DNA of 24,000 bases from Jiangella sp. DSM 45060 (GCF_900105175.1 NZ_LT629771.1:5700622-5724621); one strand, 5' to 3'; shown: positions 800 to 23,001, numbered from the stretch's first letter. A program made the numbers and translations. Notes: a model not told the origin generated them from the letters alone.

Positions 800-822
800 T
801 CCGGTCGAAACGGAGGAGCGGG

Positions 823-1596
823 ATGAGCGTCGACGACGAGCGGGGAGCGGCTTGGGACGTCTCCGGGGGCGCGGCCCGGCCACCCGGACCGGTGCAGGAC
901 CTCAGCATGCCGAGAACGGTGCTGACGGTGCTCTTCGCGCTGACCGCCGTCGTCACCGCGGCCAGTGCGGGCGCGTACGCGAACCGCGCGTCGGTGGTGT
1001 CCGACGCCGCCGGCGCGTCGCCGGAGGCGGATCCGCTGGCGAGCACGGTCGCGGTCGACGCCGACCGGTTGACGCAGGCGGACGACCTCGTGGTGCTCGG
1101 CATGTGGGGCTACACCGTCGCAGCCCTGGCGCTGGCCATCTTCTTCATCATCTGGCAGTACCGGCACGCGCGGAACGCCAAGCTGCTCGGCTCGCGCAGC
1201 GCGCTCGGCCCGGGGTGGGCCATCGGCGGCTGGTTCATCCCGCTGGCCAACCTCGTGCTCCCGGTCCGGCAGCTCTGGACCGCCAGCCGCTCGTCGAACC
1301 CCGGCGGGCGCGGCGCGGGCATCGTCGTGGCGTGGTGGGTGGCGTTCGTGGCGGCCATCCTGATCGACCGCACCGCCGCTCAGCTCGGCGTCGACGGCCC
1401 GAGGGACGACCTCACCGTGGGCGACCTCGCGAACGCGGACTGGCTGGCGGCCGCGGGCGAGATCGTCTTCACGGCCGCCGCCGTCCTGGGGCTGATCATG
1501 GTGCGCCGGCTCACCGACGCCCAGGGCGCGGCGCTCGCGGGCCGGCCCGGAGGAGCCGTCCCGCCCGCACCGCCGCCGCCCCCGCCGGCCTCCTGA
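823..1596 (+). CDS. DUF4328-type integral membrane protein with a Pro-rich C-terminal tail
   Basis: Track ORF 793..1596, with the start moved to the ATG at 823, which follows GGAGGAG (812-818). Several hydrophobic spans are present. The central motif WAIGGWFIPLANLVLPVRQLW is typical of DUF4328 as I recall that family. The protein ends in PPAPPPPPPAS. Confidence 0.75.
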   Translation: MSVDDERGAAWDVSGGAARPPGPVQDLSMPRTVLTVLFALTAVVTAASAGAYANRASVVSDAAGASPEADPLASTVAVDADRLTQADDLVVLGMWGYTVAALALAIFFIIWQYRHARNAKLLGSRSALGPGWAIGGWFIPLANLVLPVRQLWTASRSSNPGGRGAGIVVAWWVAFVAAILIDRTAAQLGVDGPRDDLTVGDLANADWLAAAGEIVFTAAAVLGLIMVRRLTDAQGAALAGRPGGAVPPAPPPPPPAS

Positions 1597-4185
1597 TCAG
1601 GGCCGCCGCCACCTGCCGGTGAACCGGTGCGAGCCCGGCCCGGCGGTGCCGGCGTACGGGTCGGCGAGCGGCAGGTCGAGGTGCACCGTGACGCCGGGCG
1701 GGACCTCGAGGGACAGCTCGAACCGGTCATCGTCGAGGGTCCAGGACACGGCGACGGGGCCGTACGGGCTGAGGTGCCGGGCCGACGCGTGGGTGAGCTG
1801 CCCGGTGACGAGCGGGCGCACCGCGACCTCCCGGTAGCCGGGCGCCGCCGGCGCGAGCCCGGCCACGCAGCGGTGCAGCCAGTCGGCGACCGCGCCGTAC
1901 GCGTAGTGGTTGAACGACGTCATCTCGCCGGGGTTGATCGAGCCGTCCGGCAGCATGGAGTCCCACCGCTCCCAGATCGTCGTGGCCCCCATCGTGACGG
2001 CGTACAGCCAGGACGGCGCGGTGCGGGTGAGCACCATCGAGTGCGCGAGGTCGGGACGGCCGGCCCGGCAGAGCGCGTCCAGCACCAGCGGCGTGCCGAG
2101 GAAGCCGGTGCTGACGTGGAAGCCCGCGGCCTGGACGAGCTCGGCGAGACGACGCCCCGCGCCGGCGCGCTGCTCGGGCGTCTCGAGCAGGTCCCACGCG
2201 ATGGCCAGCGCGTAGACGGTCTGGCAGTCGCTGCGCACCACGCCGTCGACGCCGACGTAGGCCTTGCCGAAGGCGCGGACGACGTCGGCGGCGAGGCTCT
2301 CGTACCGCGAGGCGTCGTCGTCGCGCCCCAGGACGGACGCGGTGCGCGCCAGCAGGTGTGCGCTGCGGGCCAGGTATGCCGTCGCGACGACGGCGGGGTC
2401 GGCCTTGGCCGCGGCGGCGTCGTCGGGCGGGGCGTCGGGGTCGAGCCAGTCGCCGAACTGGAAGCCGGTGTCCCAGAGCAGGGAGTCGCCGGCCAGCGAC
2501 CGCGCCTTCTCGACCCACGCGCGCATCGAGTCGTACTGCCGCTCCAGCACGCCGGTGTCGCCGTAGCGCTCGTACAGCGTCCACGGCACGTGGACGGCGG
2601 CGTCGGCCCAGCCGGCGGGCGGCGAGTGCGGCGGGTCGCCGGGACGCGGGCCGCCGATGTGCTCGTACACGACGTCGGGGACGACGAACGGGACGCCGCC
2701 ATCGGGACGCTGCTCGGCGGCGAGGTCGCGCAGCCACGAGCCGAGGAACCCGCCGACGTCGAAGAGGAAGGCGGCCGTCGGGGCGAACACCTGGATGTCG
2801 CCGGTCCAGCCGAGCCGCTCGTCGCGCTGCGGGCAGTCGGTCGGGACGTCGACGAAGTTGCCGCGCATGCCCCACACGACGTTCTCGTGCAGCCGCTCGA
2901 GGTCGGGCTCGGAGCACTCGAACCAGCCGGTGCGGCGCAGGTCGGAGCTGACGACGACGGCCTCGGCGTCGGATGCCTCGACGGACACGCCGCTGACCTC
3001 GGCGTACCGGAAGCCGTGGAAGGTGTACCGCGGCTCCAGCAGCTCCGGGCCGCCGGACAGGACGTAGCTGTCGGTGGCCTTGGCCGCGCGCAGCGGGCGC
3101 ACGCCGAGCTCGCCGTCCTCGAGCACCTCGGCGTGCCGGAGGGTGACCTCCTGACCCGGCGCTCCGGTCACCCGCAGCCGCACCCAGCCGACGACGTTCT
3201 GCCCGAAGTCGATCAGCTGGGCGCCGGACGGCGACGTGGACACCGACCGGGCCGGCACCGTCGCCACCTCGCGCACCGGCGGCCCGAGCGGCGCGACGAG
3301 GCGTGCGGCGTCGGACTCCAGGACGTCGACCGGCCCGGACGCCGAGACGGACGGGACCAGCGGCAGCCGCAGGTCGGTGCGCTGCCCGTCGTAGAGGTCG
3401 TCGGCGAGGACGCCGGTGGCGCCGGCCCGCCACGCGCCGTCGGTCACCACCGTCTCCTGGCGGCCGTCGGCGTAGGTGATCTCGAGCTGGGCCAGCAGCG
3501 CCAGCCGGTCGCCGTAGTGGTCGCGGCGCAGGTTCCACGTCAGCTGCCCGCGGTACCACCCGTTGCCCAGGCCGACGGCGAGCTGGGTCGGCCCAGCGCC
3601 CTGCAGGTGCGACGTCACGTCGAAGGTCTGGTAGCGCAGCCGCGACGCGTACGCCGTCCAGCCGGGCGCGAGCTGGTGGTCGCCGACCCGGCGGCCGCCG
3701 ATCCACGCGTCGTACACACCGTGCGCGGTGATGTACAACCGCGCGGAGGCCACCGGCCCGGCGAGGTCGAGGTCGCGGACCAGCGCGACGGCGCCGTCGT
3801 CGAGGCCGCCGACGTCGCGCGGGCTGATGAACCGAGCCGTGACGTCCTCGGGCCGCAGCAGACCGGCCTCGACGACGAGCGGCTCGCTCCAGTCGCTCCA
3901 GGCACCGCCGGCCTCGGCCCGCACCTCGACCTCGACGCGCTCGCGCGAGCGCAGCTCCGGGAACGGCCACGGCTGGAAGACCTGCCCGGCGCCGTCGACC
4001 CGAACGGCCCGGACGTCGCCGGAGGCGGCCCGCAGCCGCACCTCGTACGCGGTCTGCTCGCCCCCGCCGGACCGGGACCAGGACAACCTGGGCGCCGCGA
4101 CGCCGATGCCCAGCTCGGGCTCGCCGTACTCGGCCACGACTCTGTCGATGCGCGGCAGGTCGTCCGGGACGGTGCGGTCGGTCAT
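1597..4185 (-). CDS. alpha-L-rhamnosidase, glycoside hydrolase family 78, cytoplasmic (no signal peptide)
   Basis: An 862-aa ORF with GH78 hallmark stretches: APRLSWS near the N-terminus, FHGFRYAEV, DCPQRDERLGWTGD and TIWERWD. GGAGGA lies upstream of the ATG (rc of about 4190-4197). The stop abuts the DUF4328 stop, reading TGATCA at 1594-1599. Confidence 0.93.
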   Translation of the reverse strand: MTDRTVPDDLPRIDRVVAEYGEPELGIGVAAPRLSWSRSGGGEQTAYEVRLRAASGDVRAVRVDGAGQVFQPWPFPELRSRERVEVEVRAEAGGAWSDWSEPLVVEAGLLRPEDVTARFISPRDVGGLDDGAVALVRDLDLAGPVASARLYITAHGVYDAWIGGRRVGDHQLAPGWTAYASRLRYQTFDVTSHLQGAGPTQLAVGLGNGWYRGQLTWNLRRDHYGDRLALLAQLEITYADGRQETVVTDGAWRAGATGVLADDLYDGQRTDLRLPLVPSVSASGPVDVLESDAARLVAPLGPPVREVATVPARSVSTSPSGAQLIDFGQNVVGWVRLRVTGAPGQEVTLRHAEVLEDGELGVRPLRAAKATDSYVLSGGPELLEPRYTFHGFRYAEVSGVSVEASDAEAVVVSSDLRRTGWFECSEPDLERLHENVVWGMRGNFVDVPTDCPQRDERLGWTGDIQVFAPTAAFLFDVGGFLGSWLRDLAAEQRPDGGVPFVVPDVVYEHIGGPRPGDPPHSPPAGWADAAVHVPWTLYERYGDTGVLERQYDSMRAWVEKARSLAGDSLLWDTGFQFGDWLDPDAPPDDAAAAKADPAVVATAYLARSAHLLARTASVLGRDDDASRYESLAADVVRAFGKAYVGVDGVVRSDCQTVYALAIAWDLLETPEQRAGAGRRLAELVQAAGFHVSTGFLGTPLVLDALCRAGRPDLAHSMVLTRTAPSWLYAVTMGATTIWERWDSMLPDGSINPGEMTSFNHYAYGAVADWLHRCVAGLAPAAPGYREVAVRPLVTGQLTHASARHLSPYGPVAVSWTLDDDRFELSLEVPPGVTVHLDLPLADPYAGTAGPGSHRFTGRWRRP

Positions 4186-4761: not shown

Positions 4762-4790
4762 TGGCCAATATCCAGAATTCTGGATAGTAT
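4762..4790 (+). promoter_or_regulatory. putative promoter and operator of the yhfZ-like gene; predicts a leaderless mRNA
   Basis: TGGCCA (4762-4767), a 17-nt spacer, then TAGTAT (4785-4790). The ATG at 4798 lies only 7 nt after the -10 and has no Shine-Dalgarno. A perfect 12-bp palindrome CCAGAATTCTGG (4772-4783) sits between the hexamers, and an extra TTCTGG half-site lies at 4759-4764. GC drops locally. Confidence 0.4.
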
Positions 4791-4797
4791 CCCTGCC

Positions 4798-5712
4798 ATG
4801 TCGCGCATCCAGATGCTGATGTCGAAGGCGGGCACGGTGGCCCACCTCCTGGCCGTCGAGCTGTCCACGGCGTCGGCGGGCGACCGGATGGCGACCGTGC
4901 AGGAGTTGAGCGAGCGGTTCCAGGTCGGCAAGGGCACCGTCCAGGCGGCGCTGGCGCTGCTGGAGGAGGCGGGCGCGGTCGAGATCCGGCCGCGCGGCAA
5001 GCTCGGCACCTTCGTCGCGGCGATCGATCACGGGTTGATCTGGGAGTTCGCGGGCGGCCGATCGATCTCGGTCGCCATGCCGCTGCCGTACTCGCGCCGC
5101 TACGAGGGCCTCGCGACCGGGATGCACACGGCGTTCCAGCAGGCCGGCGTCCCGCTGACGTTGATGTTCGTGCGCGGGTCGACCGACCGCATGCGCGCCC
5201 TGCGGGAAGAACGCGCCGACTTCGCGGTGATGTCGCGGTTCGCCGCGCTGTCCGACCCCGAGCTCGACGTCGTCCGCGACTTCGGGCCGCACTCTTATGT
5301 CGGAGCGCACGGGCTGGTGGTCGCCGAGGGCCGCACGCCGGACGACCCGACGCTGCGGGTGGCCGTCGACCCCGCGTCGGTCGACCAGGCCGAGCTGACC
5401 GCCGCCGTGTTCCCCGGGTTGCCGCCGGCGCAGCGCATCGAAGTGTCGTACAACCAGCTGAACAGGTACTTCGCCGACGGCCTCGTCGACGCCACGGTGT
5501 GGAATCTCGACGAGATCGACGCGCACATCTCCAGCCCGGTCACGGTGCATCCGGTCGAGGGCCTGGAGGACGACGCGACGACGTCGGCCGTCATCGTGGC
5601 GCGCCGCGACGCCGACGCGGTGCCGACCGCGGTGAAGGTCGCTCTCGAGGGCGACCTCGTGCGGTCGGCGGCCGACGACGTCGTGGCCGGCCGGCTCATC
5701 CCCACGTACTGA
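4798..5712 (+). CDS. yhfZ: YhfZ-family transcriptional regulator (N-terminal GntR-like wHTH plus YhfZ C-terminal domain)
   Basis: A 304-aa ORF. The N-terminal wHTH-like segment is TVQELSERFQVGKGTVQAALALLEEAGAVEIRPRGKLGTFV. It is followed by PLPYSRRYEGLATG, which I recognise as YhfZ-like. Its size is close to E. coli YhfZ (about 301 aa as recalled), and it sits first in a yhf-like cluster. Confidence 0.8.
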   Translation: MSRIQMLMSKAGTVAHLLAVELSTASAGDRMATVQELSERFQVGKGTVQAALALLEEAGAVEIRPRGKLGTFVAAIDHGLIWEFAGGRSISVAMPLPYSRRYEGLATGMHTAFQQAGVPLTLMFVRGSTDRMRALREERADFAVMSRFAALSDPELDVVRDFGPHSYVGAHGLVVAEGRTPDDPTLRVAVDPASVDQAELTAAVFPGLPPAQRIEVSYNQLNRYFADGLVDATVWNLDEIDAHISSPVTVHPVEGLEDDATTSAVIVARRDADAVPTAVKVALEGDLVRSAADDVVAGRLIPTY

Positions 5713-5745
5713 CCCCACCCCCGAACCCCACGGACGGAGCGATGC

Positions 5746-6126
5746 ATGGACGACCGACTCCGCCTGCGCCTCGACCTCTTCCGCGACATGGCGCAGACCC
5801 CACCGGGCGTCGTCGACTTCGTGGCGAGCGAGCTCGCCCGGCTCGAACCGGACTTCGACGTCACCGACGACACCGCCGGCTCGCTCACCTCGCACCTGGT
5901 CGCCGCGCTCGGCCGGCTGCTGCGCGGTGAGCCCGACATCGACCCGCCGGCCGACGTCGTCTACCGGCAGGTCGTCGACGAGGCGCCCGCCGCCGTCGAC
6001 GCCGCGGCGCGGGTGTCCGGCCGCGCGGAAGCCGCGCTCGGCGTGCCGCTGTCCGCCGTCGAGCAGCAGTACCTCAGCCTCCATCTCGGCGCCCTCGCGC
6101 TGACCGCGACCAAGGAGAACCGATGA
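5746..6126 (+). CDS. yhfY: stand-alone PRD-domain protein (YhfY-like)
   Basis: A 126-aa ORF. GGACGGAG lies 6 nt upstream of the ATG. Two His residues sit in PRD-like contexts, TSH(50)LVAAL and LSLH(113)LGAL, 63 residues apart. The ATGA overlap with the next gene is at 6123-6126. Confidence 0.75.
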   Translation: MDDRLRLRLDLFRDMAQTPPGVVDFVASELARLEPDFDVTDDTAGSLTSHLVAALGRLLRGEPDIDPPADVVYRQVVDEAPAAVDAAARVSGRAEAALGVPLSAVEQQYLSLHLGALALTATKENR

Positions 6127-6491
6127 AACTCATCGCTGGCGGAGTTGCGAAGATCGAGGTCGCGGAGGCCCTGCGACCACTGCTCGGCCCCGACGACACC
6201 GTCGTCGTGGGCACCGACATGGACGCGGCCGTCCAGCTGCGCTCCGGCGCGGCCGACTACTACCTCGGGACGTGCCACACCGGCGCCGGCGCGAGCCTCG
6301 GCGTGCTGGTGGGCCTGCTCGGCTCGGACAAGACGCACACGTTCGGCCGGACCGTCCCGTCCGCCGCGGCGATCGAGGCCGCGGTCGACGCCGGCAACGT
6401 CGCCTTCGGCTTCGCGCTGGACCAGGTCGAGGACGTCGTGCCGGCGCTCTGGGCGGCGCTGGACGCGAGACGAACGGGGGCGGACGCATGA
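6123..6491 (+). CDS. yhfU: DUF2620 protein (YhfU-like)
   Basis: A 122-aa ORF with a strong AAGGAGAA RBS at 6110-6117. Size and position match E. coli YhfU (about 117 aa as recalled). It contains the motif YYLGTCHTGAGASLG. Confidence 0.78.
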   Translation: MKLIAGGVAKIEVAEALRPLLGPDDTVVVGTDMDAAVQLRSGAADYYLGTCHTGAGASLGVLVGLLGSDKTHTFGRTVPSAAAIEAAVDAGNVAFGFALDQVEDVVPALWAALDARRTGADA

Positions 6492-7879
6492 TCCTCGCCG
6501 CCACCGACACCGCGTCGGTCTCGTTCGACGCCTGGCAGGGCGTGCTGGTCATCGTGCTGTGCGCGTTCGCGGCGCTGATCGCGAACGCCGCGCTCGCGGT
6601 CTTCAACGACGGCGCCCGGCCGTTCCTGCTCGACTACATCCAGGGCCGGTCCACCCGGCTGGCCACCGCGACGATCGTGACGGGGCTGTCGGCCGGGTTC
6701 ATCTTCGGCCTCGGCGCGCCGATGGCGCTGTCGACCGGCGTGCTCAACCCGTGGCTGGTGTTCCTGCCGGTCGAGATCATCGGCCTGATCGCGCCGTGGC
6801 GCTGGCTCGCGGCCACCGGCGGCGCGGCCTGGGGCGCGGTCTGCGTCTTCGGCCTCAACGCCGCCAACAACGCGGCCACGTCGCTGCCGATCGACTTCGT
6901 CACGGCCCTGCAGCAGATCTCCACCCCGATCCTGTGGCTGTTCACGCTGTTCCCGGTGCTGGCGATCACCCGCCAGTTCGGCCGGGCGAAGGGCCTGATC
7001 ACGTTCGGCGCCGAGCTCGCCGTCGTGCTGCTGTCGATGAACGTCTGGGAGACCCTGTTCCCCGGGTCGCTGGCCATGGCGACCGGCGTCGTCATGCTGC
7101 TCGGGTTCGCGCTCACCCAGGACCGGTCCACCCGGCGGGCCGAGCAGCTGGTGCTGGCCGGCGGGTCCGAGGCGGACCGCGTGGCGCACGCCGAGCAGCA
7201 GGCGGCCACCGCGGCCGCGTCCGACCAGCTGTTCGGGCCCAACGCGGAGCGGCTGCGCCGGAACGTCATCCCGCTGGGCATCCTCGGCGGCATGGTCGCG
7301 GCGCTGGCGGCCAGCGGCATCTTCGGTGGCGGCGAGGCCACCAGCTTCCTCGTCGCCGACGGCACCTACGGCGAGGCCGCGCAGGTCGACTTCCTGCGCG
7401 CCTTCGGCTTCGTGCCGCTGATCGCGACGACGGCGCTGGCCTCGGGCGCGTACGCGATGGCCGGGTTCACCTTCGTCTACCCGATCGGCTACCTGTCGCA
7501 CGTCTTCATCGACGCCTGGCCGCTGGCGCTCGCGGTCGCGTTCGTGCTCGGCGCGCTGGTGATGGCCGCGGAGGTGCTGCTGCTCAGCGCCGTCGGACGG
7601 TGGCTGCAGCACTGGCCGAGCGTGCGCGAGTCGGCCGACCATATCAGGCACGCGATCACCGAGACGCTGTCGCTGGCGATCCTGGTCGGCTCGCTGATGG
7701 CCGGCCTCGCGATGGGCGGCGGACTGGGCATCGCGCTGGTCGGCGGGCTGTATCTGCTCAACGAGTCGATGGGGCGGCCGGTCGTGCGCATGGCGGCCGG
7801 ACCCGCGGCGGTCATCGTCGGCGGCATCGTGCTCAACCTGCTGCACCTGGTCGACCTCGTCCAGCCGGTGGCGGGCTGA
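6488..7879 (+). CDS. yhfT: YhfT-like polytopic membrane protein (putative transporter)
   Basis: Same frame as track ORF 6272..7879. The start is set at the ATG at 6488, which forms an ATGA overlap with the yhfU-like stop. The upstream part of the track ORF is Arg-rich out-of-context sequence. From MILAATD onward the protein is highly hydrophobic with many predicted TM spans (463 aa). Confidence 0.82.
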   Translation: MILAATDTASVSFDAWQGVLVIVLCAFAALIANAALAVFNDGARPFLLDYIQGRSTRLATATIVTGLSAGFIFGLGAPMALSTGVLNPWLVFLPVEIIGLIAPWRWLAATGGAAWGAVCVFGLNAANNAATSLPIDFVTALQQISTPILWLFTLFPVLAITRQFGRAKGLITFGAELAVVLLSMNVWETLFPGSLAMATGVVMLLGFALTQDRSTRRAEQLVLAGGSEADRVAHAEQQAATAAASDQLFGPNAERLRRNVIPLGILGGMVAALAASGIFGGGEATSFLVADGTYGEAAQVDFLRAFGFVPLIATTALASGAYAMAGFTFVYPIGYLSHVFIDAWPLALAVAFVLGALVMAAEVLLLSAVGRWLQHWPSVRESADHIRHAITETLSLAILVGSLMAGLAMGGGLGIALVGGLYLLNESMGRPVVRMAAGPAAVIVGGIVLNLLHLVDLVQPVAG

Positions 7880-8790
7880 TGCCGATCCGGACGGCGAGCG
7901 GCCGGGTGCTCGGGCCGGTGGACGTGCCCGGCACGGTCCTCGCGCACGAGCACCTGGTCGTCGACCTCACCCGGTTCGGCGATCCCGAGGCGCGGGTGAG
8001 CGACGACGCCGCGGTGGCGGCCGAGCTGGCCGCGGCCCGCGCGGAGCACGACCTCGGGCTGGTCGTCGACCTCACCGGCCGCGGAATGGGCGCCGACCCG
8101 GCCCGGGCGCGCGCCATCGCCGAGCGGGCCGGCGTCGAGGTCGTGCTCGCGACCGGCTGGTACTACGAGCGGTTCCACCCCGACGGCGAACCCGGCGACT
8201 CCGTCGACCTCGCCACCGAGCTGCTGGTGAACGACATCGGCGCCGGCATCCGGCCCGGCGTCATCGGCGAGATCGGCAGCAGCGGCGAGCAGGCCAGTGC
8301 GGCCGAGCGCGTCGGCCTGCTCGCGTCCGCCGGGGCCGCGCTGGCCACCGGGCTGTCCGTCGCCACCCACGCCCACCTCGGACGCGGCGGACTGGAGCAG
8401 CTCGACCTGCTCACCGGCGCGGGGCTGGCGCCGCACCGCATCTGCATCGGCCACCAGGACCTCATCGACGACACCGGCCAGCACCGCGCCATCGCCGCCG
8501 CCGGCGCGTACGTCGCCTTCGACACCGTCGGCAAGGCGGCCTACCAGCCCGACGAGAAGCGCGTCGAGCTGCTGCTCGCGCTGCTGGACGCCGGCTACGC
8601 CCGGCACCTGCTGCTGAGCAACGACATCTCCCGCGACGGCTACCTGACCAGCCGCGGCGGGCCGGGCTTCGGCCACGTGCTGGGCCCGTTCCGCGCCGAG
8701 CTCGCCGCCCGCGGCGTCGACGCGGCGACGCTCGGTCTGCTCTACCGGGAGAACGCCCTGCGCTGGCTGGACGGAACGGAGCACCCATGA
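7879..8790 (+). CDS. php: phosphotriesterase-homology protein (PHP / COG1735 amidohydrolase-superfamily hydrolase)
   Basis: This is the C-terminal 303 aa of track ORF 6145..8790, starting at the ATG at 7879, which shares its A with the yhfT-like TGA. It carries an HxH metal motif, LAHEHLVVDL (His23/His25, 7945-7953), then VIGEIGSS, ATHAHLG, CIGHQD and LLSNDISRD. Confidence 0.92.
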   Translation: MPIRTASGRVLGPVDVPGTVLAHEHLVVDLTRFGDPEARVSDDAAVAAELAAARAEHDLGLVVDLTGRGMGADPARARAIAERAGVEVVLATGWYYERFHPDGEPGDSVDLATELLVNDIGAGIRPGVIGEIGSSGEQASAAERVGLLASAGAALATGLSVATHAHLGRGGLEQLDLLTGAGLAPHRICIGHQDLIDDTGQHRAIAAAGAYVAFDTVGKAAYQPDEKRVELLLALLDAGYARHLLLSNDISRDGYLTSRGGPGFGHVLGPFRAELAARGVDAATLGLLYRENALRWLDGTEHP

Positions 8791-9896
8791 GCCCCTCGCT
8801 GCCCGCGACCACCCCGCTGCCCATCGCGACCGCCGACGACGCCCTGGCCGCGCAGCAGCGCCTGGTCGGCGCGATCGCGACACACTTCACCGACGGTGCG
8901 CTCTTCCGCGCCGACGTCGGCGTCGTGCCCGGCCTCGGCCGGCCCGACACCACCGCCCGGGCGGAGGCGGTGCTGGCCGAGGCGTTCGGCGCCGACGACG
9001 CCTGCCTGGTGCAGGGCGCGGGCACCGGCGCCATCCGGGCCGCGCTGTCGGCCGGCCCGTGGTCGCAGGGCGAGCGGCGGATCATCGCCCACGACGCGCC
9101 CGACTACTCGACGACGGCGACGACGTTCCGCGACGGCCTGGCCGACGTCGCCCGCGTCGACTTCGACGACAACACCGCGCTCGACGCCGCGCTCGCCGGC
9201 GACCCGGCCCGCTGGGTGTATGTGCAGCACTCCCGGCAGCGGCTGGCCGACCGGCACCAGCCCGCCGACGTCATCGCGCGGGCGGCCGCGTCGGGCCGCG
9301 GCGTCGTCGTCGACGACAACTACGCGGTGTTCCGGACCCCGGGCATCGGCGTCCAGCACGGCGCCACCGTCTCGGCGTTCTCGCTGTTCAAGCTGCACGG
9401 GCCGGAGGGCGTCGGCGTGGTCGTCGGCGACGGCGAGCTGGTCGGCCGGGCGCGGGCGGCCAACTACTCCGGCGGCGGCCAGGTCCAGGGCGGTCAGGCG
9501 CTGGCCGCGTTGCAGGCGCTGGTGATGGTCCCGCTGAACTGGGCCGCGCAGTCGCGGGCGGTGACGGAGCTGGCCGGCCGGCTGGCGGACGGCGACGTGC
9601 CCGGCGTCGTGGACGTCCGGCTGGCGAACGCGCAGGACCTGTGCGTCATCGCGCTGCTGGACCGGCCCGTGGCGGCGAACGTGCCGGCGTGGGCCGCGCG
9701 GCACGGCGCCGCGCCGTTCCCCGTCGGCTCCAACTCGCGGCACGAGATCACCCCGCTGGTCTACCGGCTGTCGTCGTCGGCGCTGGCCGCGCAGCCGGAG
9801 CTGGCGGACTGGGCGGTCCGGGTGAACCCGATGCGCGCCGGTGCCGAGCTGACCGCCCGCATCCTGCGGTCGGCTCTGGCCGAAGGGGATCGTTGA
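8787..9896 (+). CDS. yhfS: PLP-dependent fold-type-I enzyme, YhfS-like (aminotransferase/lyase-type)
   Basis: A 369-aa ORF with an ATGA overlap with the php stop. The candidate PLP-lysine context is VSAFSLFKLHGPEGVGVVVG, preceded by VVVDDNYAV. Its size is close to E. coli YhfS (about 361 aa as recalled). Confidence 0.8.
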   Translation: MSPSLPATTPLPIATADDALAAQQRLVGAIATHFTDGALFRADVGVVPGLGRPDTTARAEAVLAEAFGADDACLVQGAGTGAIRAALSAGPWSQGERRIIAHDAPDYSTTATTFRDGLADVARVDFDDNTALDAALAGDPARWVYVQHSRQRLADRHQPADVIARAAASGRGVVVDDNYAVFRTPGIGVQHGATVSAFSLFKLHGPEGVGVVVGDGELVGRARAANYSGGGQVQGGQALAALQALVMVPLNWAAQSRAVTELAGRLADGDVPGVVDVRLANAQDLCVIALLDRPVAANVPAWAARHGAAPFPVGSNSRHEITPLVYRLSSSALAAQPELADWAVRVNPMRAGAELTARILRSALAEGDR

Positions 9897-11059
9897 TGTT
9901 CCTGGCGATGACCGAGCGGCGCAATCCCGCGCTCGTCCAGGCCGCGATCGACCTGCACCGCTCCGGCGCCGTCGAGCCGGACACGTACGTGATCGACCTC
10001 GACGCGGTGGACCACAACGCGGCCGCGCTGGCGGCGAGCGCCGCGCGGCACGGCGTCGAGCTGTGGTTCGTCGCCAAGCAGTACGGCCGCAACCCGCTGG
10101 TCACCGCCACCGTCGCGCGGCACCTGCCGCTGGCCGCGGCGATCGACCACCGCGAGGCCGTCGCGCTGCTCGGCGCCGGCGCCCGGCTGGGCAACCTGGG
10201 GCATCTGGTCCAGGTGCCGCGCCGGCGGCTGCCCGGCCTCCTCGCCGCCGAACCGGCATACGTGACGGCGGCGGACGAGCAGAACCTGACGGCCGTCGCG
10301 GCGGCCGCGCACGACCTCGGCCGGGTGCAGCCGGTGCTGCTGAAGATCCGCGGCGCGGCGGAGTCGACGTTCCCCGGCCAGGACGGCGGCTTCGAGCCTG
10401 ACGACGTCGCCGGGGTGCTCGAGCGCGCCGCCCGGCTGGACGGCGTCCGCGTCGCCGGAGCGACCGGCTTCCCCTGCCTGAGCTTCGACGCCGGCGCCGG
10501 GCGGCCGCGGCCCACCGGCACCCTCGACCGCGTGCTCGCCGCCGCCGCGACGATGCGGGCGGCCGGCCTCGACCCGGTGCTGTCGCTGCCCAGCCACACC
10601 AGCGTCAGCACGATCCCGCAGATCGCGCGGCTCGGCGGCGCCGTCGGCGAGCCGGGTCACGCGCTCACCGGCACGACGCCCGAGCACGCCGTCGACGCCG
10701 CTCTGGCCGAACGTCCGGCGCTGGTGTACGTCTCGGAGATCGCCCAGCTCGGCTCCGCGCCGAGCGTCTTCGGCGGCGGCTTCTACAGCCGCGGCCGGGC
10801 CCGCGACCTGCTCGTCGCCACCGGCGGCGGAGTGCGCCGGGCGACGCTGCGCGACACCCCGGCGGGCAGCATCGACTACTACCGCCGGTTCGACTGGAGC
10901 GGCGACGGCGACGGCGCGCGGGTCGGCGACACCGCCGTCATGGCGTTCCGCACGCAGATCTTCGTGACCCGCTCCCGGGTGGCCGTGGTCGCCGGGATCG
11001 AGGCGGGACGGCCGCGTGTGGAGGGCGTGTTCGACGCGCTGGGGAGCCGGGTCGCGTGA
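9896..11059 (+). CDS. yhfX: alanine-racemase-N-domain (fold-type III) PLP enzyme, YhfX-like
   Basis: This is the C-terminal 387 aa of track ORF 9059..11059. The start ATG at 9896 shares its A with the preceding TGA. The candidate PLP lysine is in WFVAKQYGRNP. The length equals E. coli YhfX as I recall it (387 aa). Confidence 0.85.
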   Translation: MFLAMTERRNPALVQAAIDLHRSGAVEPDTYVIDLDAVDHNAAALAASAARHGVELWFVAKQYGRNPLVTATVARHLPLAAAIDHREAVALLGAGARLGNLGHLVQVPRRRLPGLLAAEPAYVTAADEQNLTAVAAAAHDLGRVQPVLLKIRGAAESTFPGQDGGFEPDDVAGVLERAARLDGVRVAGATGFPCLSFDAGAGRPRPTGTLDRVLAAAATMRAAGLDPVLSLPSHTSVSTIPQIARLGGAVGEPGHALTGTTPEHAVDAALAERPALVYVSEIAQLGSAPSVFGGGFYSRGRARDLLVATGGGVRRATLRDTPAGSIDYYRRFDWSGDGDGARVGDTAVMAFRTQIFVTRSRVAVVAGIEAGRPRVEGVFDALGSRVA

Positions 11060-12300
11060 GCCCCTCCGCGACCGTCCTCGTCCTCGACGGCTTCGGCGTG
11101 GGCGCGCTGCCCGACGCCGCCACCGTCCGGGCGTCGGACACCGCGGCCGACACCGTCGGCGCCGTCGCCGCGTGGTCGGTGCGCGAGCGGGGCCGGCCGC
11201 TGGACGTGCCGCACCTGGCCGGGCTGGGGCTGGCGGCGCTCCGCCCGGACCTGCGCGACCTGCTCGCCGTCCCGGTCCCGCTGCTGCGCGCGACCGGCGC
11301 CCGGGCCGGGCTCGGCTACCCCGGCGCGGACTCCTTCGCCGGTCACCAGACCCTCATGGGCGCCGACATGTCGCACGTCGTGCTGTGCCGGCTGGCCGAG
11401 CGGATCGACGAGGTGACGGCTGCGCTGCGGGCCCGCGGGCACCGGGTGCGGACGCTGGACGACCGCCCCGTCCTGGTGGTCGACGACGCCGCGCTCGTCC
11501 ACGACAACCTCGAGGCCGACCCCGGCCTGAACTGGAACGTCTCCGCCCGGCTGGACGACCTCGGCTTCGCCGCGATCCTGGCGATCGCGCAGGTGGTGCG
11601 CGCCGTGGCGCCGGTGGCCCGCGTCATCGCCGTCGGCGGGCGCTCCGAGCGGCCGCTGGCCGACGCCGTCCGCCCCGGTCCCGGCGGCACCGTCGGGCTG
11701 GACACCCCCGCCAGCGGGTTCTACCGCAACGGCGGGCTGCGGGTCCGGCACCTCGGCGCGCCGGTCGACCACGCCCGCCAGCTGCACGAGGCGGCGGCGC
11801 GCGCCGGCCACGACGTCGTCCTCATCGGGAAGGCCGCCGACCTGCTGGTGACCGACGCGCCCGTCGACCGCCGTCCGGGCGTCGACACCGCCGCGATCCT
11901 CGCCGACGTCGCGGCGACCGCCGGGCACGGGCTGGTCGTGGCGAACGTGCAGCGGACCGACCTCGCCGGGCACTCCCAGGACGCGGCCGCCTTCGCCGAT
12001 CAACTGGAGGCGGCCGACCGCGCCCTCCCCCGCGTCGCCGGACGGCTCGGCCCGCGCGACCTGCTGGTCGTCACCGGTGACCACGGCAACGACCCCGCCA
12101 TCGGGCACCCCTTCCACACCCGCGAGTGGGTGCCGGTGCTGGCCGCAACCGGCGGCGCCCCCTCGACCCGCCGCGGCCACGATCTCGCCTCCCTCGCCGA
12201 CGTCGGCGCGACGGTCGCGCGGTGGCTCGGTCTCCCGGCCGGCGCCACCGCCGTCGGCGTCGCCGCCGCCGCGCAGGACCTACCCGTGGGCGGCCGGTAG
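11056..12300 (+). CDS. yhfW: phosphopentomutase-like metalloenzyme of the alkaline-phosphatase superfamily, YhfW-like
   Basis: A 414-aa ORF with a GTG start that forms a GTGA overlap with the yhfX-like stop. Metal-ligand-type motifs are present: [22 protein letters not shown] and HTREWVPVL. Confidence 0.85.
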
Positions 12301-13287
12301 CTCGGCGAAGTGGCAGGCGCTCGGGTGCAGGCCGAGCCGGGGCTCGAGGGCGGGCTCGACGTCGGCGCACTCGTCCCGGGCCTTCCAGCAGCGGGTCCGG
12401 AACCGGCAGCCGGACGGCGGGTCGGCCGGTGAGGGGACGTCGCCGGTGAGGAGGATGCGCTCGCGCGGCGGCTGGCTCCACGGCCGCGGCACCGGGACGG
12501 CGGAGAGCAGCGCCTGGGTGTATGGGTGGGTGGGCCGCCGGAAGATCTCCTCCTGCTCGGCCAGCTCGACCACCTTGCCCGCGTACATGACGGCGACCCG
12601 GTCCGAGACGTGACGGACGACGGAGAGGTCGTGGGCGATGAAGAGGTAGGTGAGGCCGAGGTCGGCCTGCAGGTCGGCGAGCAGGTTGAGCACCTGCGCC
12701 TGGATCGACACGTCCAGGGCCGACACCGCCTCGTCGCAGATGACGAGCTTGGGCCGCAGCGCCAGCGCGCGGGCGATGCCGAGGCGCTGCCGCTGACCGC
12801 CGGAGAACTGGTGCGGGTAGCGGTCGGCGTGGCTCGGGTCGAGGCCGACCCGGGCGAGCAGGTCGCGCACCTCGTCGCGCCAGCGGTCGCGCGGCACGAC
12901 GCCGGGGTGGATCTCCCAGGCCTCGGCGACGATCTGGCCGGCGGTGCGGCGCGGGTTCAGCGACGAGTACGGGTCCTGGAAGATCATCTGGACGTCGCGT
13001 CGCGCGGCGCGCAGCTCGGCCGGCGACGCGGCGGTGAGGTCGCGGCCGTCGAAGGTGACGGTGCCCGACGCGGCCCGCTCCAGCCCGATCACCGTCCGGG
13101 CCAGCGTCGACTTGCCCGACCCCGACTCACCCACCAGCCCGAGCGTCTCGCCGCGGCGCAGGTCGAAGGAGACACCGGCGACGGCCTGCACGTGGCCGGT
13201 GACCCGCCGCAGCAGCGCCGAGCGCAGCGGGAACGTCGTGTGCAGGTCGCGCACCGACAGCAGCGGCTCAGACCCGTTCGCGCTCAC
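12280..13287 (-). CDS. oligopeptide/dipeptide-type ABC transporter ATP-binding protein (DppF/OppF-like)
   Basis: Same frame as track ORF 12280..13455, with the start moved to the GTG at 13287 ([15 protein letters not shown]). It has Walker [10 protein letters not shown], the signature LSGGQRQR, Walker B LVICDE and a C-terminal Cys-rich oligopeptide-ABC tail. It overlaps the upstream ATPase gene by 20 nt. Confidence 0.9.
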
Positions 13288-14278
13288 CCGACACCACCTC
13301 CTCGGCGTGGTGGCACGCGGCCCGGTGCTCGGCCGGCCGCCCGTCGACGGCGCGCAGGGCGGGGTCGTCGGCGCGGCACCGGTCGGTGGCGTATGGACAG
13401 CGTGGATGGAAGGAACAGCCGGACGGCAGCGCCAGCAGGTTCGGCGGCGCGCCACGCACCGGCGTCAGCCGCTCGCGCGGCCCGTCGAGGTCCGGGATCG
13501 ACGCCATCAGGCCGCGGGTGTAGGGGTGGGCGGCATGGTCGTAGACCTCGCGGATGGCGCCGGTCTCGACCGCCCGCCCCGCGTACATGAGCAGCGCCCG
13601 GTCAGCGACGTCGGCGACCACGCCGAGGTCGTGCGTGATCAGCACGAGCGCCATGCCCTCCTCGCGGCGCAAGTCCGCCAGCAGCCGCATGATCTGCGCC
13701 TGGACGGTGACGTCGAGCGCCGTCGTCGGCTCGTCAGCGATGAGCAGGCGGGGCCGCAGCGCGAGCGCCATCGCGATCATGATCCGCTGCCGCATGCCGC
13801 CGGAGAACTGGTGCGGGAAGTCGTCGACCCGCCGCCCGGCGGCCGGGATGCCGACCCGCTCCATCAGCTCGACGGCGGCGGCGCGCGCAGCCCGGCGCGA
13901 GGCGCCGCGGTGCCGCCGGAACATCTCGCCGATCTGCCAGCCGACCCGGAACACCGGGTTCAGCGAGCTGAGCGGGTCCTGGAAGACCATCGCGATCTCG
14001 TCACCGCGCAGCCGCCGGACCCGGTTCGGGTCCTCGGTCAGCAGGTCGCGTCCGTCGTAGACGATGCTGCCGCCGGCGATCTCGCCGGCCGGCTTGGGCA
14101 GGATCCCCATGACGGCCTGGGCGGTGACGCTCTTGCCGCTGCCGGACTCGCCGAGGACGGCCAGCGTCTCGCCCCGGCGCACATCGAACGACACCCCGTC
14201 GACGGCTCGGACGACGCCGCCGCCGGTGCGGAAGCGCACGGCGAGGTCGCGCACGCTGAGCAGTGGACTCTCCGTCAC
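13268..14278 (-). CDS. oligopeptide/dipeptide-type ABC transporter ATP-binding protein (DppD/OppD-like)
   Basis: A 336-aa ORF with a GTG start. It has Walker [10 protein letters not shown], the signature FSGGMRQR, Walker [13 protein letters not shown] and a C-terminal [14 protein letters not shown] motif. Confidence 0.92.
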
Positions 14279-14285
14279 GGCCGCC

Positions 14286-15191
14286 TCACAGGTTCTTCAG
14301 CTTCGGGTCGAACCGGTCCCGCAGCGCGTCGCCGAGCAGGCCGAACGACACGACCAGCAGCGCGAGGCAGATACCGGGGATGGTGGAGATCCACCACGCG
14401 TCGCCCAGGTAGTTGCGCCCGTTCGCGATGGTGACGCCCCAGCTCGGCGAGCTGGACGGGGTACCGAGGCCGAGGAAGCTCAGCGACGCCTCGGCCAGGA
14501 TGACGTGCCCGATCTCGACCGTCGCGACCACCAGCACCGGCGCCGCGCAGGCCGGCAGCACGCAGTGCCGCACCAGGTGCCACGACCGCGCGCCCAGCGT
14601 CCGGGTCGCGTCGACGAAGTCGCGGTTCTTCGTGACCAGCACCTGACTGCGGGCCACCCGCGCGAACGTCACCCAGTTCGAGATGGCCAGAACGATGACG
14701 ACGTTGACGACGCTCGGCCCGAGCAGCGCGGCGATGAAGATCGCCAGCAGGATCGACGGGAACGTGAGCTGGACGTCGGCCAGCCGCATCAGCGCGCCGT
14801 CCAGCCACCGTCCGTACCACCCGGCCACGACGCCGACGGTGACGCCGATCAGCCCGGCCAGCAGCAGCGTCGCGACGCCGACCGCGATGGAGATGCGCGC
14901 GCCCTGGAACACCTGCGCGAGCAGGTCCTGGCCCACCTGGTCGGTGCCGAAGATCGCCAGCGAGCCGTCCTCGGTGCGCGAGCCGGGCGGCAGCAGCCGG
15001 TCGCCGGTGCTCGTCGCGACCGGGTCGTAGCCGACCAGCCACGGCCCGAACACCGCCGCGAGCACGTAGAGGGCGATGACGGCGCTCGCGAACCGGATGC
15101 GCCCGGAACCGGGCTTGCGCCTGGGGCGGCCAGCAGCCTCGGGGACGGGGGCGGCCGGCGGGCTGCCGAGGTCGGTCAGTGTGTCGGTCAT
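14286..15191 (-). CDS. ABC transporter permease (DppC/OppC-like)
   Basis: A 301-aa ORF with multiple TM segments, N-terminal and core features of the binding-protein-dependent transport family, and an EAA-loop-like EASLSFLGLG. Confidence 0.92.
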   Translation of the reverse strand: MTDTLTDLGSPPAAPVPEAAGRPRRKPGSGRIRFASAVIALYVLAAVFGPWLVGYDPVATSTGDRLLPPGSRTEDGSLAIFGTDQVGQDLLAQVFQGARISIAVGVATLLLAGLIGVTVGVVAGWYGRWLDGALMRLADVQLTFPSILLAIFIAALLGPSVVNVVIVLAISNWVTFARVARSQVLVTKNRDFVDATRTLGARSWHLVRHCVLPACAAPVLVVATVEIGHVILAEASLSFLGLGTPSSSPSWGVTIANGRNYLGDAWWISTIPGICLALLVVSFGLLGDALRDRFDPKLKNL

Positions 15192-15194
15192 GGG

Positions 15195-16118
15195 TCACCC
15201 GGCCAATCGCACGCGGGGGTCGAGGTAGCCGTACAGGACGTCGACGACGAGGTTCACCAGCACGAACACCGCGGCGATGAACAGCACGGCGGCCTGGACG
15301 ACGCCGTAGTCGCGGTGCGAGATCGCGTCGACCAGCAAGCGCCCGACGCCGGGCCAGGCGAACACCGTCTCGACGATGACGGTGCCGCCGAGCAGCTGGC
15401 CGAACTGCAGGCCGACCACCGTCACGACCGGGATCAGCGCGTTGCGGGCGGCGTGCGGGAAGATCACGACGCTCTCGCGCAGCCCCTTCGCGCGCGCCGT
15501 CTGCACGTAGCCCTCGTGGATGACCTCGAGCAACCCGCTGCGGGTCAGCCGGACCAGGATGGCCAGGAACGGCAGCGCCAGCGTGACCGCCGGGAGCACC
15601 AGGTGCTGCCAGCCGCCGGTGCCGCCGCTGGGCAGCACGTCCAGCGTCCGGGCGAACACCAGGATGAAGACGATGCCGACCCAGAACGCCGGCGTCGACT
15701 GCCCCACCAGCGACAGCACCGAGATGACGCGGTCGGTCAGCGTGTTGGCCTTGAGCGCCGCGATGACGCCGAGCGGGAAGCCGATGAGGATCGACAGCGT
15801 GAGCGCGGCGATCGCCAGCTCGGCGGTGTTCGGCAGCCGCGACAGGACGAGGTCCATGGCGTCGACGTTCATCCGGAACGAGTCGCCGAAGTCCAGCCTG
15901 ACGACGTCGCGCAGGTACGTGCCGTACTGGACGATCAGCGACTCGTCCAGGCCCATCCGCTCGCGCAGCTGGGCGATCTGGTCGGCGGTCGCGTCCGGCC
16001 CGAGCAGCACGGTCGCGGGGTCGCCGGGCACCAGCCGCAGCACCACGAAGATGACCGAGACGGCGCCCCACAGGACGAAGACGGAGAACAGCAGCCGGCG
16101 CGCGAGGTAGGCCGGCAT
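15195..16118 (-). CDS. ABC transporter permease (DppB/OppB-like)
   Basis: Same frame as track ORF 15195..16196. The start is set at the ATG at 16118 (MPAYLARRLLFSVFVLWG, the canonical DppB N-terminus), which forms an ATGA overlap with the IclR stop. Confidence 0.92.
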   Translation of the reverse strand: MPAYLARRLLFSVFVLWGAVSVIFVVLRLVPGDPATVLLGPDATADQIAQLRERMGLDESLIVQYGTYLRDVVRLDFGDSFRMNVDAMDLVLSRLPNTAELAIAALTLSILIGFPLGVIAALKANTLTDRVISVLSLVGQSTPAFWVGIVFILVFARTLDVLPSGGTGGWQHLVLPAVTLALPFLAILVRLTRSGLLEVIHEGYVQTARAKGLRESVVIFPHAARNALIPVVTVVGLQFGQLLGGTVIVETVFAWPGVGRLLVDAISHRDYGVVQAAVLFIAAVFVLVNLVVDVLYGYLDPRVRLAG

Positions 16119-17082: not shown

Positions 17083-17145
17083 CCGAACTGGCGCAGGCCG
17101 TTGGAATTCATCTGTGAAGCGGCCCCCATTCGCGAGGAGGCGACT

Positions 17146-22877: not shown

Positions 22878-22907
22878 CGGCTCAGGGTCGGGCACCCCGC
22901 CACGGCC

Positions 22908-22944
22908 GGGCAACGCGGTTCCGCCCTGTGCAACCGCGTTGCCC
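22908..22944. promoter_or_regulatory. perfect 13-bp inverted repeat in a divergent intergenic region (candidate operator)
   Basis: GGGCAACGCGGTT (22908-22920), an 11-nt spacer, then AACCGCGTTGCCC (22932-22944). It lies between the histidine-phosphatase operon start (22877, -) and the LTD gene start (23002, +), so it is not positioned as a terminator. Confidence 0.45.
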
Positions 22945-23001
22945 CGGCGGCCCACTGAGCAGCAGGGTGGCCGGCGCCGGACCACACGAGAGGTGACCAG
23001 C

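Follow-up and report, generated by a model that had tools for sequence, protein, structure and literature searches.

What pathway is encoded by the yhf/php genes, which are among the larger gene blocks of Escherichia coli K-12 without a function although three of their proteins have crystal structures? The question is raised again by a 24,000-nt stretch of DNA from Jiangella sp. DSM 45060 (hereafter the window), where eight co-directional genes on the + strand, from 4798 to 12300, encode the yhfZ, yhfY, yhfU, yhfT, php, yhfS, yhfX and yhfW families. The locus joins a known orphan cluster, whose proteins' family names are already carried by the databases. We propose, at about even chances, that the eight genes are one catabolic operon that is repressed by YhfZ, contains a YhfT/YhfU/YhfY module coupled to the phosphotransferase system (PTS), and degrades one small amino compound. 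No published pathway for the cluster was found by full-text literature searches on the yhf genes, DUF2620 and php, in keeping with the statement of an initial annotation of this DNA that no role has been established. The E. coli yhf genes are still annotated as 'putative' or 'uncharacterized' in RefSeq, and the function of Php was 'unknown' in a 2010 paper (PMC3010111) and in a 2021 review (PMC7954711). Literature on the names yhfT, yhfU, yhfS and yhfW mostly concerns unrelated same-named Bacillus or Staphylococcus genes, and 'b3379' is there a strain name, not the gene. The yhfW assignment of a gap-filling paper was set aside as a very weak guess only (E 0.47).

Are the eight reading frames real, and do they belong together? 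The GC fraction of the window is about 0.74, chance open reading frames (ORFs) are common in such DNA, and 49 ORFs of at least 90 aa overlap the cluster stretch. In all eight yhf frames, third-codon-position GC is 0.92-0.98 and second-position GC is 0.46-0.55, a coding signature that identifies them as genuine genes rather than chance ORFs. Re-reading them returned the eight co-directional ORFs of the initial annotation, with protein lengths (Table 1) that match its figures exactly. Its description of the junctions also stood, six of the seven being overlaps of 1-4 nt and the sole gap following the regulator: +33 nt at Z/Y, -4 at Y/U (ATGA), -4 at U/T (ATGA), -1 at T/php (TGATG), -4 at php/S (ATGA), -1 at S/X (TGATG) and -4 at X/W (GTGA). 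Pfam and NCBIfam profile searches placed seven of the products firmly in the families it had named, with the PRD assignment of YhfY being weak when taken alone. All eight yhf/php families are contiguous on one strand, and no terminator-like site was found on the + strand inside the cluster. Together with the start/stop overlaps and the conservation across lineages described below, this indicates that the eight genes are probably one unit.

The E. coli K-12 locus (b3383-b3376) contains the same eight families on a single strand, also with the regulator and then the PRD protein first, which is the correspondence that had been proposed from the sequence. Seven of the eight window products are 31-44% identical to their E. 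coli counterparts by BLASTP, and the catalytic residues are the same. The E. coli order given in the initial annotation, yhfZ-yhfY-yhfX-yhfW-php-yhfU-yhfT-yhfS, was confirmed on NC_000913; it differs from the Z-Y-U-T-php-S-X-W order of the window, and short gaps separate the E. coli genes where the window genes overlap. A scan with one genome per species gave 360 YhfT-encoding stretches. The best 80 of these 360, on which our actinobacterial counts are based, are all actinobacterial (Jiangella, Aeromicrobium, Georgenia, Enemella, Boudabousia, Streptomonospora and many Streptomyces); the window YhfT is 94% identical to the J. alkaliphila and J. anatolica proteins, and the window YhfU matches a Jiangella sp. 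DSM 45060 protein at 100% identity. All eight genes occur in the window order in 72 of the 80 loci, a recurrence by which the grouping is judged not to be due to chance. Six of the remaining eight loci run out at a contig edge ahead of the missing genes, and YhfY, a short and divergent protein, falls below the detection threshold in L067 and in the contig-truncated L049. The window order is also present in Clostridia, Negativicutes, Fusobacteriota and Spirochaetota. Clostridium hydrogeniformans and a Clostridium-type metagenomic contig (L092) show it unchanged, and in Cetobacterium, Caloramator, a Selenomonadales genome and two metagenomic contigs it comes with an additional gene, the ninth, that separates yhfT from php; Brachyspira aalborgi has the ninth gene and is without YhfZ. 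Since the window order recurs across Actinobacteria and these other lineages, it is the widespread arrangement and the E. coli order a derived exception.

Overall, the set is present in Actinomycetota, Bacillota, Fusobacteriota, Spirochaetota and Pseudomonadota, that is, in at least five phyla and six major lineages. The initial annotation was thus right that the set is kept across phyla while its order is shuffled. Its further inference, that retention of all eight families argues for one obligate pathway, goes too far in making the eight obligatory, as genes are dropped and a ninth is added. A Bacillus thuringiensis plasmid carries Y-U-T-php-S-X only, lacking YhfZ and YhfW, the Vibrio halioticoli cluster has no YhfS nearby, and a metagenomic variant (L095) has no Php. 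In Lactobacillus rhamnosus, a strain-variable set holds consecutive accessions for a PRD protein, a DUF2620 protein, a membrane protein and a YhfX-family enzyme (PMC7513527). PRD, DUF2620, YhfT and YhfX are common to every cluster read with at least two yhf genes (short contigs such as L097 excluded). The pairs Z-Y, U-T and X-W stay together wherever both partners are present, and are found as sub-blocks in the window, E. coli, Cetobacterium, Vibrio and the 72 actinobacterial loci. One could take the gene losses in Vibrio, in L095 and on the B. thuringiensis plasmid, where three ATP-grasp ligase genes follow the cluster, to mean that the eight genes are not one pathway, and represent either a regulatory and transport module joined to unrelated enzymes or a biosynthetic cluster. 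We regard this as very improbable, given that the set has been kept across at least five phyla through rearrangement with the Z-Y, U-T and X-next-to-W blocks intact, that its genes are translationally coupled, that one operator stands ahead of the first gene with no other copy in the window, and that a GntR-type repressor plus a permease is typical of catabolic operons.

The surroundings of the E. coli locus invite a different explanation, in which the cluster would catabolise a glycated amino acid (an Amadori or Heyns product) in a manner akin to the E. coli frl fructoselysine operon. In K-12, yhfS lies 151 bp from frlR, beside frlABCDR, and a mixture of sugar-phosphate-type and amino-acid-type enzymes would suit such a substrate. 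Yet the adjacency to frl recurs in no other lineage read, neither in the window nor in any of the 80 actinobacterial loci, and no fructosamine kinase or deglycase family is present. Hence we give this explanation hardly any weight.

How might transcription of the unit be controlled? Ahead of yhfZ, at a distance of 12 nt, is a perfect 16-bp palindrome, ATCCAGAATTCTGGAT, which is the sole match in the window with three mismatches allowed, where 0.01 would be expected by chance. Of 78 actinobacterial loci, 74 have its core, TCCAGnATnnTGG, at -27/-26 relative to the yhfZ start, and the other four loci have 1-2 changes in the core at the same position. The upstream consensus of the actinobacterial loci is CCCTTGnCAgTATCCAGAATCCTGgTTACTGT, with a further 7-8 nt before the start codon. 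The palindrome occupies the 17-nt spacer between a candidate -35 and a candidate -10 element (Table 1). A simple sigma-70 consensus scan found no promoter, and we infer the proposed yhfZ promoter from this conservation instead. yhfZ is without a Shine-Dalgarno-like motif, the other seven genes having GGAG/GGGG-type motifs within the upstream 20 nt, and its mRNA is probably leaderless or near-leaderless. The simplest reading of the arrangement would be a repressor bound between -35 and -10 on a leaderless yhfZ, with YhfZ as the obvious candidate repressor. YhfZ matches the NCBIfam model YhfZ_full (NF041241) over its full length (288.9 bits, cutoff 260) and the Pfam families HTH_41 (E 1.2e-14) and YhfZ_C (E 1e-52), the latter a binding-protein-like domain, and shares 31% identity with E. 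coli YhfZ. In contrast to Actinobacteria, E. coli shows no such operator sequence ahead of yhfZ.

We then asked whether the enzymes of the cluster retain their active sites. Catalytic positions were checked in orthologues extracted from 81 loci (77-81 sequences per protein), and each of the four enzymes appears catalytically intact by its conserved residues. Php (Pfam PTE, E 1e-48) has E. coli PHP (1bf6, 4lef) as its nearest PDB relatives. All six metal ligands, H23, H25, E131, H164, H192 and D249, are invariant in 79 sequences, and align with what we take to be H12, H14, E125, H158, H186 and D243 in the 1bf6 numbering of the E. coli protein; the bridging Glu, a typical feature of E. coli PHP, replaces the carboxylated Lys of true phosphotriesterases. 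The best-scoring NCBIfam family, PRK09875, gave 169.1 bits without reaching its cutoff of 486, and the gene is syntenic, so the window Php is best seen as a divergent orthologue outside that narrow equivalog. Assignment as a phospho-furanose lactonase (NF045706) was rejected at 36.2 bits against a cutoff of 630. The COG1735 lactonases Lmo2620, Bh0225 and MS53_0025, whose substrates are reportedly 5-phosphorylated pentono-1,4-lactones, share the PTE-family fold and binuclear metal centre with Php, and such substrates would fit the phosphate-handling partners in the cluster; the window Php, however, is nearest to E. coli PHP and stands apart from the lactonase equivalog. Overexpressed E. coli php opens a bypass giving 2-oxo-3-hydroxy-4-phosphobutanoate (PMC3010111). 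Php is therefore able to act on metabolites that are small phosphorylated hydroxy acids.

Two of the enzymes depend on pyridoxal 5'-phosphate (PLP). YhfS (YhfS-like_C PF22475, 119.5 bits, and Aminotran_5; PDB 4j8l, E. coli YhfS, E 7e-82) has an invariant PLP-binding Lys202, and its nearest characterised relatives by profile are methionine/cystathionine gamma-lyases and cysteine desulfurases. YhfX (Ala_racemase_N, 46 bits, and YhfX-like_C, 78 bits; PDB 4kbx, E. coli YhfX, E 8e-67) has an invariant PLP-binding Lys61. Among characterised enzymes, those nearest to it are alanine racemase, D-threonine aldolase, D-3-hydroxyaspartate aldolase and D-3-hydroxyaspartate dehydratase, which act on D-amino acids, especially D-beta-hydroxy-alpha-amino acids. 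The YhfX of two Streptomyces (L069 13646-15070, L074 13581-14990) carries an insertion of about 80 residues in mid-barrel, of low complexity and rich in Gly, Asp, Arg and Leu. YhfW belongs to Pfam Metalloenzyme and to NCBIfam PRK12383 (369.1 bits, cutoff 254). Its residues D11, D302, H306, D342, H343 and H354 are invariant, and the nucleophile is Ser93 in the window and Thr in most orthologues. Against Bacillus cereus phosphopentomutase, the core domain of YhfW aligns but the cap domain does not. With this unalignable cap and scores of 112.7 bits for PRK05362 (cutoff 256) and 87.4 for TIGR01696 (cutoff 341), identification as the phosphopentomutase DeoB was rejected.

The remaining three proteins, YhfT, YhfU and YhfY, bear on how the substrate enters the cell. 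YhfT is the only membrane component of the cluster and matches its Pfam family over profile positions 3-429 of 430 (451.5 bits, E 4e-135); no other Pfam family was found on it even at E 10. Its AlphaFold2 model (predicted local distance difference test score, pLDDT, 86.4; predicted template modelling score, pTM, 0.85) has many helices and short hairpin-like elements. A Foldseek search of this model against the PDB found no similar structure, the best template modelling (TM) score being 0.23, and no similarity of YhfT to a known PTS EIIC family was found in sequence or fold. A weak two-fold internal repeat (residues 57-135 versus 294-378, hhalign E 0.02) hints at a two-fold pseudo-symmetric membrane architecture, and this faint repeat and the many short helices of the model would suit a transporter. 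Streptomyces varsoviensis and three related strains have a second, divergent YhfT paralogue of 459 aa between yhfZ and yhfY, giving Z-T'-Y-U-T-php-S-X-W (about 7666-9053 in L060, L061 and L081; also in L068).

YhfY gave a Pfam PRD score of 19.9 bits, below the gathering score of 23, and a weak match to the PRD structure 3nuf. Each of nine diverse relatives of YhfY does match PRD, with a best E of 3.9e-11. Any PRD would be expected to control a sugar operon through phosphorylation by the PTS. The window YhfY has both PRD histidines, His50 and His112, about 60 residues apart. His50 is invariant in 79 of 79 aligned sequences. Actinobacteria and Bacillus also have His112, a position at which E. 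coli, Vibrio and Cetobacterium have Asn.

YhfU matches Pfam DUF2620 (114.5 bits, cutoff 25; E 3.8e-33). Cys51, Thr53 and Asp32 are invariant in 81 sequences, the first two within a Cys51-x-Thr53-Gly-x-Gly loop; E. coli YhfU differs in having Asn at the position of actinobacterial His52. At E <= 0.001, a search with the DUF2620 profile against 1.84 billion representatives gave 147 proteins. The ten longest or fused of these all carry DUF2620 and none of the ten matches LacAB_rpiB, so DUF2620 is a small, isolated family. No solved structure was found for YhfU or YhfT. The AlphaFold2 model of YhfU (pLDDT 93.6) is a five-stranded alpha/beta protein, and its top PDB fold match is the isomerase RpiB (5ifz; TM 0.65-0.67, probability 1.0, E 2.8e-3), which alone rises above the generic flavodoxin-like matches. 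Identification of YhfU as an EIIB by fold was rejected, since chitobiose EIIB ranks 38th (TM 0.46-0.53) and the cysteine follows strand 3, not strand 1.

This fold match raises the possibility that YhfT is a plain secondary permease and YhfU a soluble aldose-ketose isomerase of RpiB/LacAB type that acts on a sugar-phosphate intermediate, with phosphorylation by an unlinked kinase and with YhfY merely passing general carbon-catabolite status from HPr to YhfZ. RpiB is the only PDB fold match to stand out for YhfU, and RpiB/LacAB isomerases appear to share both its fold and, after strand 3, a Cys-x-Thr-Gly-x-Gly-x-Ser loop. In an hhalign alignment with E. coli RpiB, YhfU Cys51/Thr53 fall on the catalytic Cys66/Thr68 and loop 35-60 on 50-75. 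Moreover, YhfW resembles phosphopentomutase, the partner of ribose-5-phosphate isomerase in pentose handling. The sequence support for an isomerase is nevertheless marginal: the hhalign E value is 0.053, and among 36 YhfU-family members Pfam LacAB_rpiB matches one, at E 0.068 only. YhfU is about 30 residues shorter than RpiB, its partners are membrane and PRD proteins, and it presumably lacks the Asp-His pair after strand 1 and the C-terminal phosphate-binding arginines of RpiB. Nor would an isomerase account for yhfU and yhfT being strictly adjacent in all lineages, for the fusion of DUF2620 to PRD, or for the presence of Enzyme I and HPr in the operon of that fusion, a variant which has separate cupin and SIS isomerase-type genes. 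We therefore consider an isomerase role for YhfU doubtful.

If YhfU is not an isomerase, what would tie it to YhfY and YhfT? The two genes yhfU and yhfT are adjacent in every lineage despite rearrangement, often with a 4-nt overlap, and no recognisable kinase is present in any cluster variant read. Because a PRD protein is part of every cluster read with at least two yhf genes, the U-T adjacency is strict, the YhfU cysteine is invariant and a recognisable kinase is missing, the YhfT/YhfU/YhfY module is probably coupled to the PTS. A natural DUF2620-PRD fusion, seen as one protein cluster on 14 contigs from three sources, retains the cysteine and both PRD histidines. It is not a read-through of the usual Y-U order, because DUF2620 comes first. 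On the + strand of the fusion loci, YhfT, a short-chain dehydrogenase and a shikimate-dehydrogenase-like protein are followed, past a GntR regulator on the opposite strand, by DUF2620-PRD, YhfW, YhfX, HPr, Enzyme I and an Eda-type aldolase. The locus ends, again on the opposite strand, with genes for a 2-hydroxyacid dehydrogenase, a cupin, a YhfS-like enzyme and a class-III aminotransferase. HPr, Enzyme I and Eda of this operon all score above their NCBIfam cutoffs, and no canonical EII gene is present in the fusion loci. PRD-type PTS regulators (MtlR, LicR, ManR) resemble the fusion in combining PRD with a small Cys-containing alpha/beta domain. In contrast to them, the PRD of the window is single and stand-alone with DNA binding left to another protein, the GntR-type regulator, and DUF2620 does not count among the recognised EIIB families. 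PTS genes also lie nearby elsewhere. In Brachyspira, a single co-directional run takes in PTS IIB, IIC, MupG and IIA and, directly after them, Y-U-T; HPr and a PRD/EIIA regulator are encoded alongside. In Vibrio an EIIC gene is just upstream of the cluster.

From these parts we assemble the proposed operon as follows. Transcription would start at or beside the yhfZ ATG, YhfZ would hold the palindromic operator until an inducer is present, and YhfY would modulate YhfZ according to its phosphorylation state at His50. YhfT would be the permease and YhfU its PTS-coupled partner, whose Cys51 may be phosphorylated by HPr or an EIIA and hand the phosphoryl group on to the incoming substrate or to YhfY; such a phosphoryl route would explain why the variants read have no recognisable kinase. 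What then reaches Php, YhfW and the two PLP enzymes would probably be a phosphorylated hydroxy-amino acid. Php would open a ring or ester, for example a lactone or lactam, and YhfW would shift or remove phosphate. At an alpha-amino, beta-hydroxy centre, YhfX and YhfS would use PLP to epimerise and then either to eliminate the amine or to cleave a C-C bond. Judging by the Eda-type aldolase of the variant operon, the route would end in a 2-keto-3-deoxy(-phospho) acid, which a housekeeping Eda-type aldolase would split. By analogy, the substrate class is most likely a 2-amino-2-deoxy-aldonate or its lactone. The phosphorylated sugar, amino-sugar or amino-acid conjugate suggested in the initial annotation would fit with Enzyme I, HPr and an Eda-type aldolase lying together in the variant operon. 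The Salmonella D-glucosaminate pathway, dgaABCDEF, reportedly comprises PTS uptake, a PLP-dependent D-glucosaminate-6-phosphate ammonia-lyase and 2-keto-3-deoxy-6-phosphogluconate aldolase, and thus shares with the proposed route group translocation, PLP-dependent amine elimination and an Eda-type split of a 2-keto-3-deoxy product. The likeness is one of logic between unrelated proteins: the mannose-family EII, SelA-like DgaE and sigma-54 activator of dga are not found in yhf, and Php, YhfW, YhfU and a second PLP enzyme are found in yhf alone.

Several points weigh against this proposal. EIIA, HPr and Enzyme I genes are absent from the window and from most clusters, and the association with Enzyme I and HPr is that of one divergent lineage, in which YhfT is 25% identical to that of the window and Php is missing. 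YhfY of E. coli, Vibrio and Cetobacterium has Asn in place of the second PRD histidine. YhfU is structurally nearest to RpiB and not to EIIB, with its cysteine placed as in RpiB, where EIIB has its own after strand 1, and this RpiB-like topology of the model argues for caution regarding phosphate transfer to the substrate. The cluster has no dehydrogenase to form a lactone from a sugar, so the substrate of Php would have to arrive already cyclised or esterified. The proposed substrate class is a hypothesis that fits the parts. A more specific version of the proposal is offered only tentatively: YhfT and YhfU, with YhfY as the sensor, could be an unrecognised PTS permease family, made up of a new EIIC-type fold and an RpiB-fold phosphocarrier served by Enzyme I and HPr, that delivers a phosphorylated 2-amino-2-deoxy-aldonate or similar hydroxy-amino acid to a PLP route ending in an Eda-split 2-keto-3-deoxy-phospho acid.

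The ninth gene, between yhfT and php in many non-actinobacterial (Firmicutes-type) clusters from six lineages, brings in one more candidate substrate. It encodes a very divergent amidase-signature protein of 343-413 aa, with mutual identities of 36-52%, in Fusobacteriota, Spirochaetota, Negativicutes and Clostridia. The GSSS and GTDGGGS amidase-signature motifs are retained in these products, which are otherwise barely recognisable as amidases. An amidase at this position, together with the kinship of YhfX to alanine racemase and D-amino-acid enzymes, would accord with salvage of peptidoglycan fragments, such as a MurNAc (N-acetylmuramic acid)-6-phosphate derivative, a muramic lactam or a D-amino-acid stem peptide. 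In line with this, MupG is part of the run of PTS genes ahead of Y-U-T in Brachyspira, the Selenomonadales cluster is followed by GntR/UTRA, PTS EIIBC, MupG and SIS proteins, a set like MurP-MupG-MurQ, and a DD-peptidase/beta-lactamase-family (PF00144) gene adjoins the cluster or a lone YhfT in two cases. However, adjacency to MupG is limited to two of about 14 non-actinobacterial contexts, from two phyla, and occurs in none of the 80 actinobacterial loci and not in E. coli, the window has neither the amidase nor the PF00144 gene, and no cluster enzyme belongs to a known muropeptide-recycling family. Sugar-utilisation genes, besides, often cluster without sharing a pathway. Cell-wall salvage is thus unlikely in our view. 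The two PF00144 proteins (about 525 aa) are encoded directly upstream of the lone YhfT in Clostridium swellfunianum (L088 8352-11293) and upstream of yhfZ in a metagenomic contig (L091 6141-7724).

Returning to the PTS-coupled catabolic operon that we favour, the presence of the same unit in at least five phyla (six major lineages), with intact active sites and an operator conserved in Actinobacteria, speaks for a real and widespread pathway and not an oddity of E. coli. To what was known of this cluster we add how widely and in which direction it has been conserved, a candidate operator with a probably leaderless promoter, the ninth gene, the observation that YhfT and YhfU are unusual proteins, and the context of Enzyme I, HPr and Eda. 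With the fusion, the Eda-type aldolase and the connection to Enzyme I and HPr, what was an open-ended question of function becomes a testable one. Should YhfT and YhfU prove to be a new PTS permease, they would be the first addition to the PTS permease families in many years.

Table 1 Coordinates of the cluster, its upstream elements, neighbouring genes in the window, and related genes in other loci.
Feature	Position	Strand	Description
DUF4328 protein	793-1596	+	beyond the rhamnosidase
GH78-type alpha-L-rhamnosidase	1597-4185	-	five rhamnosidase domains; divergent from yhfZ across a 612-bp intergenic region
Candidate -35	4762..4767	+	TGGCCA; actinobacterial consensus TTGnCA; conserved upstream of yhfZ
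Candidate YhfZ (GntR-type) operator	4770..4785	.	perfect 16-bp palindrome between -35 and -10
Candidate -10	4785..4790	+	TAGTAT, 7 nt ahead of yhfZ ATG; consensus TACTGT
yhfZ	4798..5712	+	304 aa; HTH_41 + YhfZ_C
yhfY	5746..6126	+	126 aa; single stand-alone PRD
yhfU	6123..6491	+	122 aa; DUF2620
yhfT	6488..7879	+	463 aa; polytopic membrane protein, YhfT family
php	7879..8790	+	303 aa; PTE, binuclear-metal amidohydrolase superfamily
yhfS	8787..9896	+	369 aa; fold-type I PLP enzyme
yhfX	9896..11059	+	387 aa; fold-type III (alanine-racemase-fold) PLP enzyme
yhfW	11056..12300	+	414 aa; phosphopentomutase-like, alkaline-phosphatase superfamily
Opp/Dpp-type ATP-binding cassette (ABC) transporter	12280-16196	-	two ATPases + two permeases; converges on yhfW
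DUF6772 protein	17101-18111	+	E 1.8e-128; between IclR and LacI regulators
Family-5 solute-binding protein	19580-21436	-	3 kb past the transporter; IclR, DUF6772 and LacI genes between
Endonuclease/exonuclease/phosphatase-family + histidine-phosphatase-family proteins	21121-23159	-	
DUF2620-PRD fusion	L095 4243-5049	+	metagenomic contig, 64% GC
DUF2620-PRD fusion	L096 4275-5081	+	metagenomic contig, 64% GC
Ninth gene	L084 11279-12310		between yhfT and php
Ninth gene	L086 11299-12333		between yhfT and php
Ninth gene	L087 11339-12448		between yhfT and php
Ninth gene	L089 11364-12494		between yhfT and php
Ninth gene	L091 11328-12569		between yhfT and php
Ninth gene	L093 11358-12467		between yhfT and php

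Beyond the cluster, the window contains genes that do not travel with it. ORF clustering over the 80 loci found no other flanking gene conserved across genera, flank conservation being limited to housekeeping synteny within Streptomyces (ffh, glnD, proS, trmD); the rhamnosidase next to the cluster is not conserved in other genera. The last gene of the Opp/Dpp-type transporter overlaps the yhfW stop by 21 bp. This transporter was considered as a member of the cluster and rejected, its genes having no copy of the yhf operator in the window and not being conserved with the cluster. Among two further divergent DUF2620 contexts (L097 and L098; L099), which are short or end at a contig edge and added little, the DUF2620 gene of L099 is near an Opp-type transporter with two family-5 binding proteins.

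In Vibrio halioticoli (L085 3393-7142), the EIIC gene, a DUF7916 protein (E 1.7e-102) and a porin come before the cluster and a Tn3-family transposase comes after it; the segment of the 244-kb plasmid that bears this copy is therefore mobile or was recently acquired. Fusions of YhfS-YhfT, Php-YhfT, Php-DUF2620 and DUF2620-YhfT join proteins in the order of the E. coli genes; read-through or an assembly artefact explains them most simply, and they were not used as evidence. A 768-aa YhfS-YhfT fusion (protein P0010) in E. coli gene order is publicly named 'Gasdermin-D [Trichuris trichiura]', a label that almost certainly reflects bacterial contamination of the worm assembly together with a mis-transferred name.

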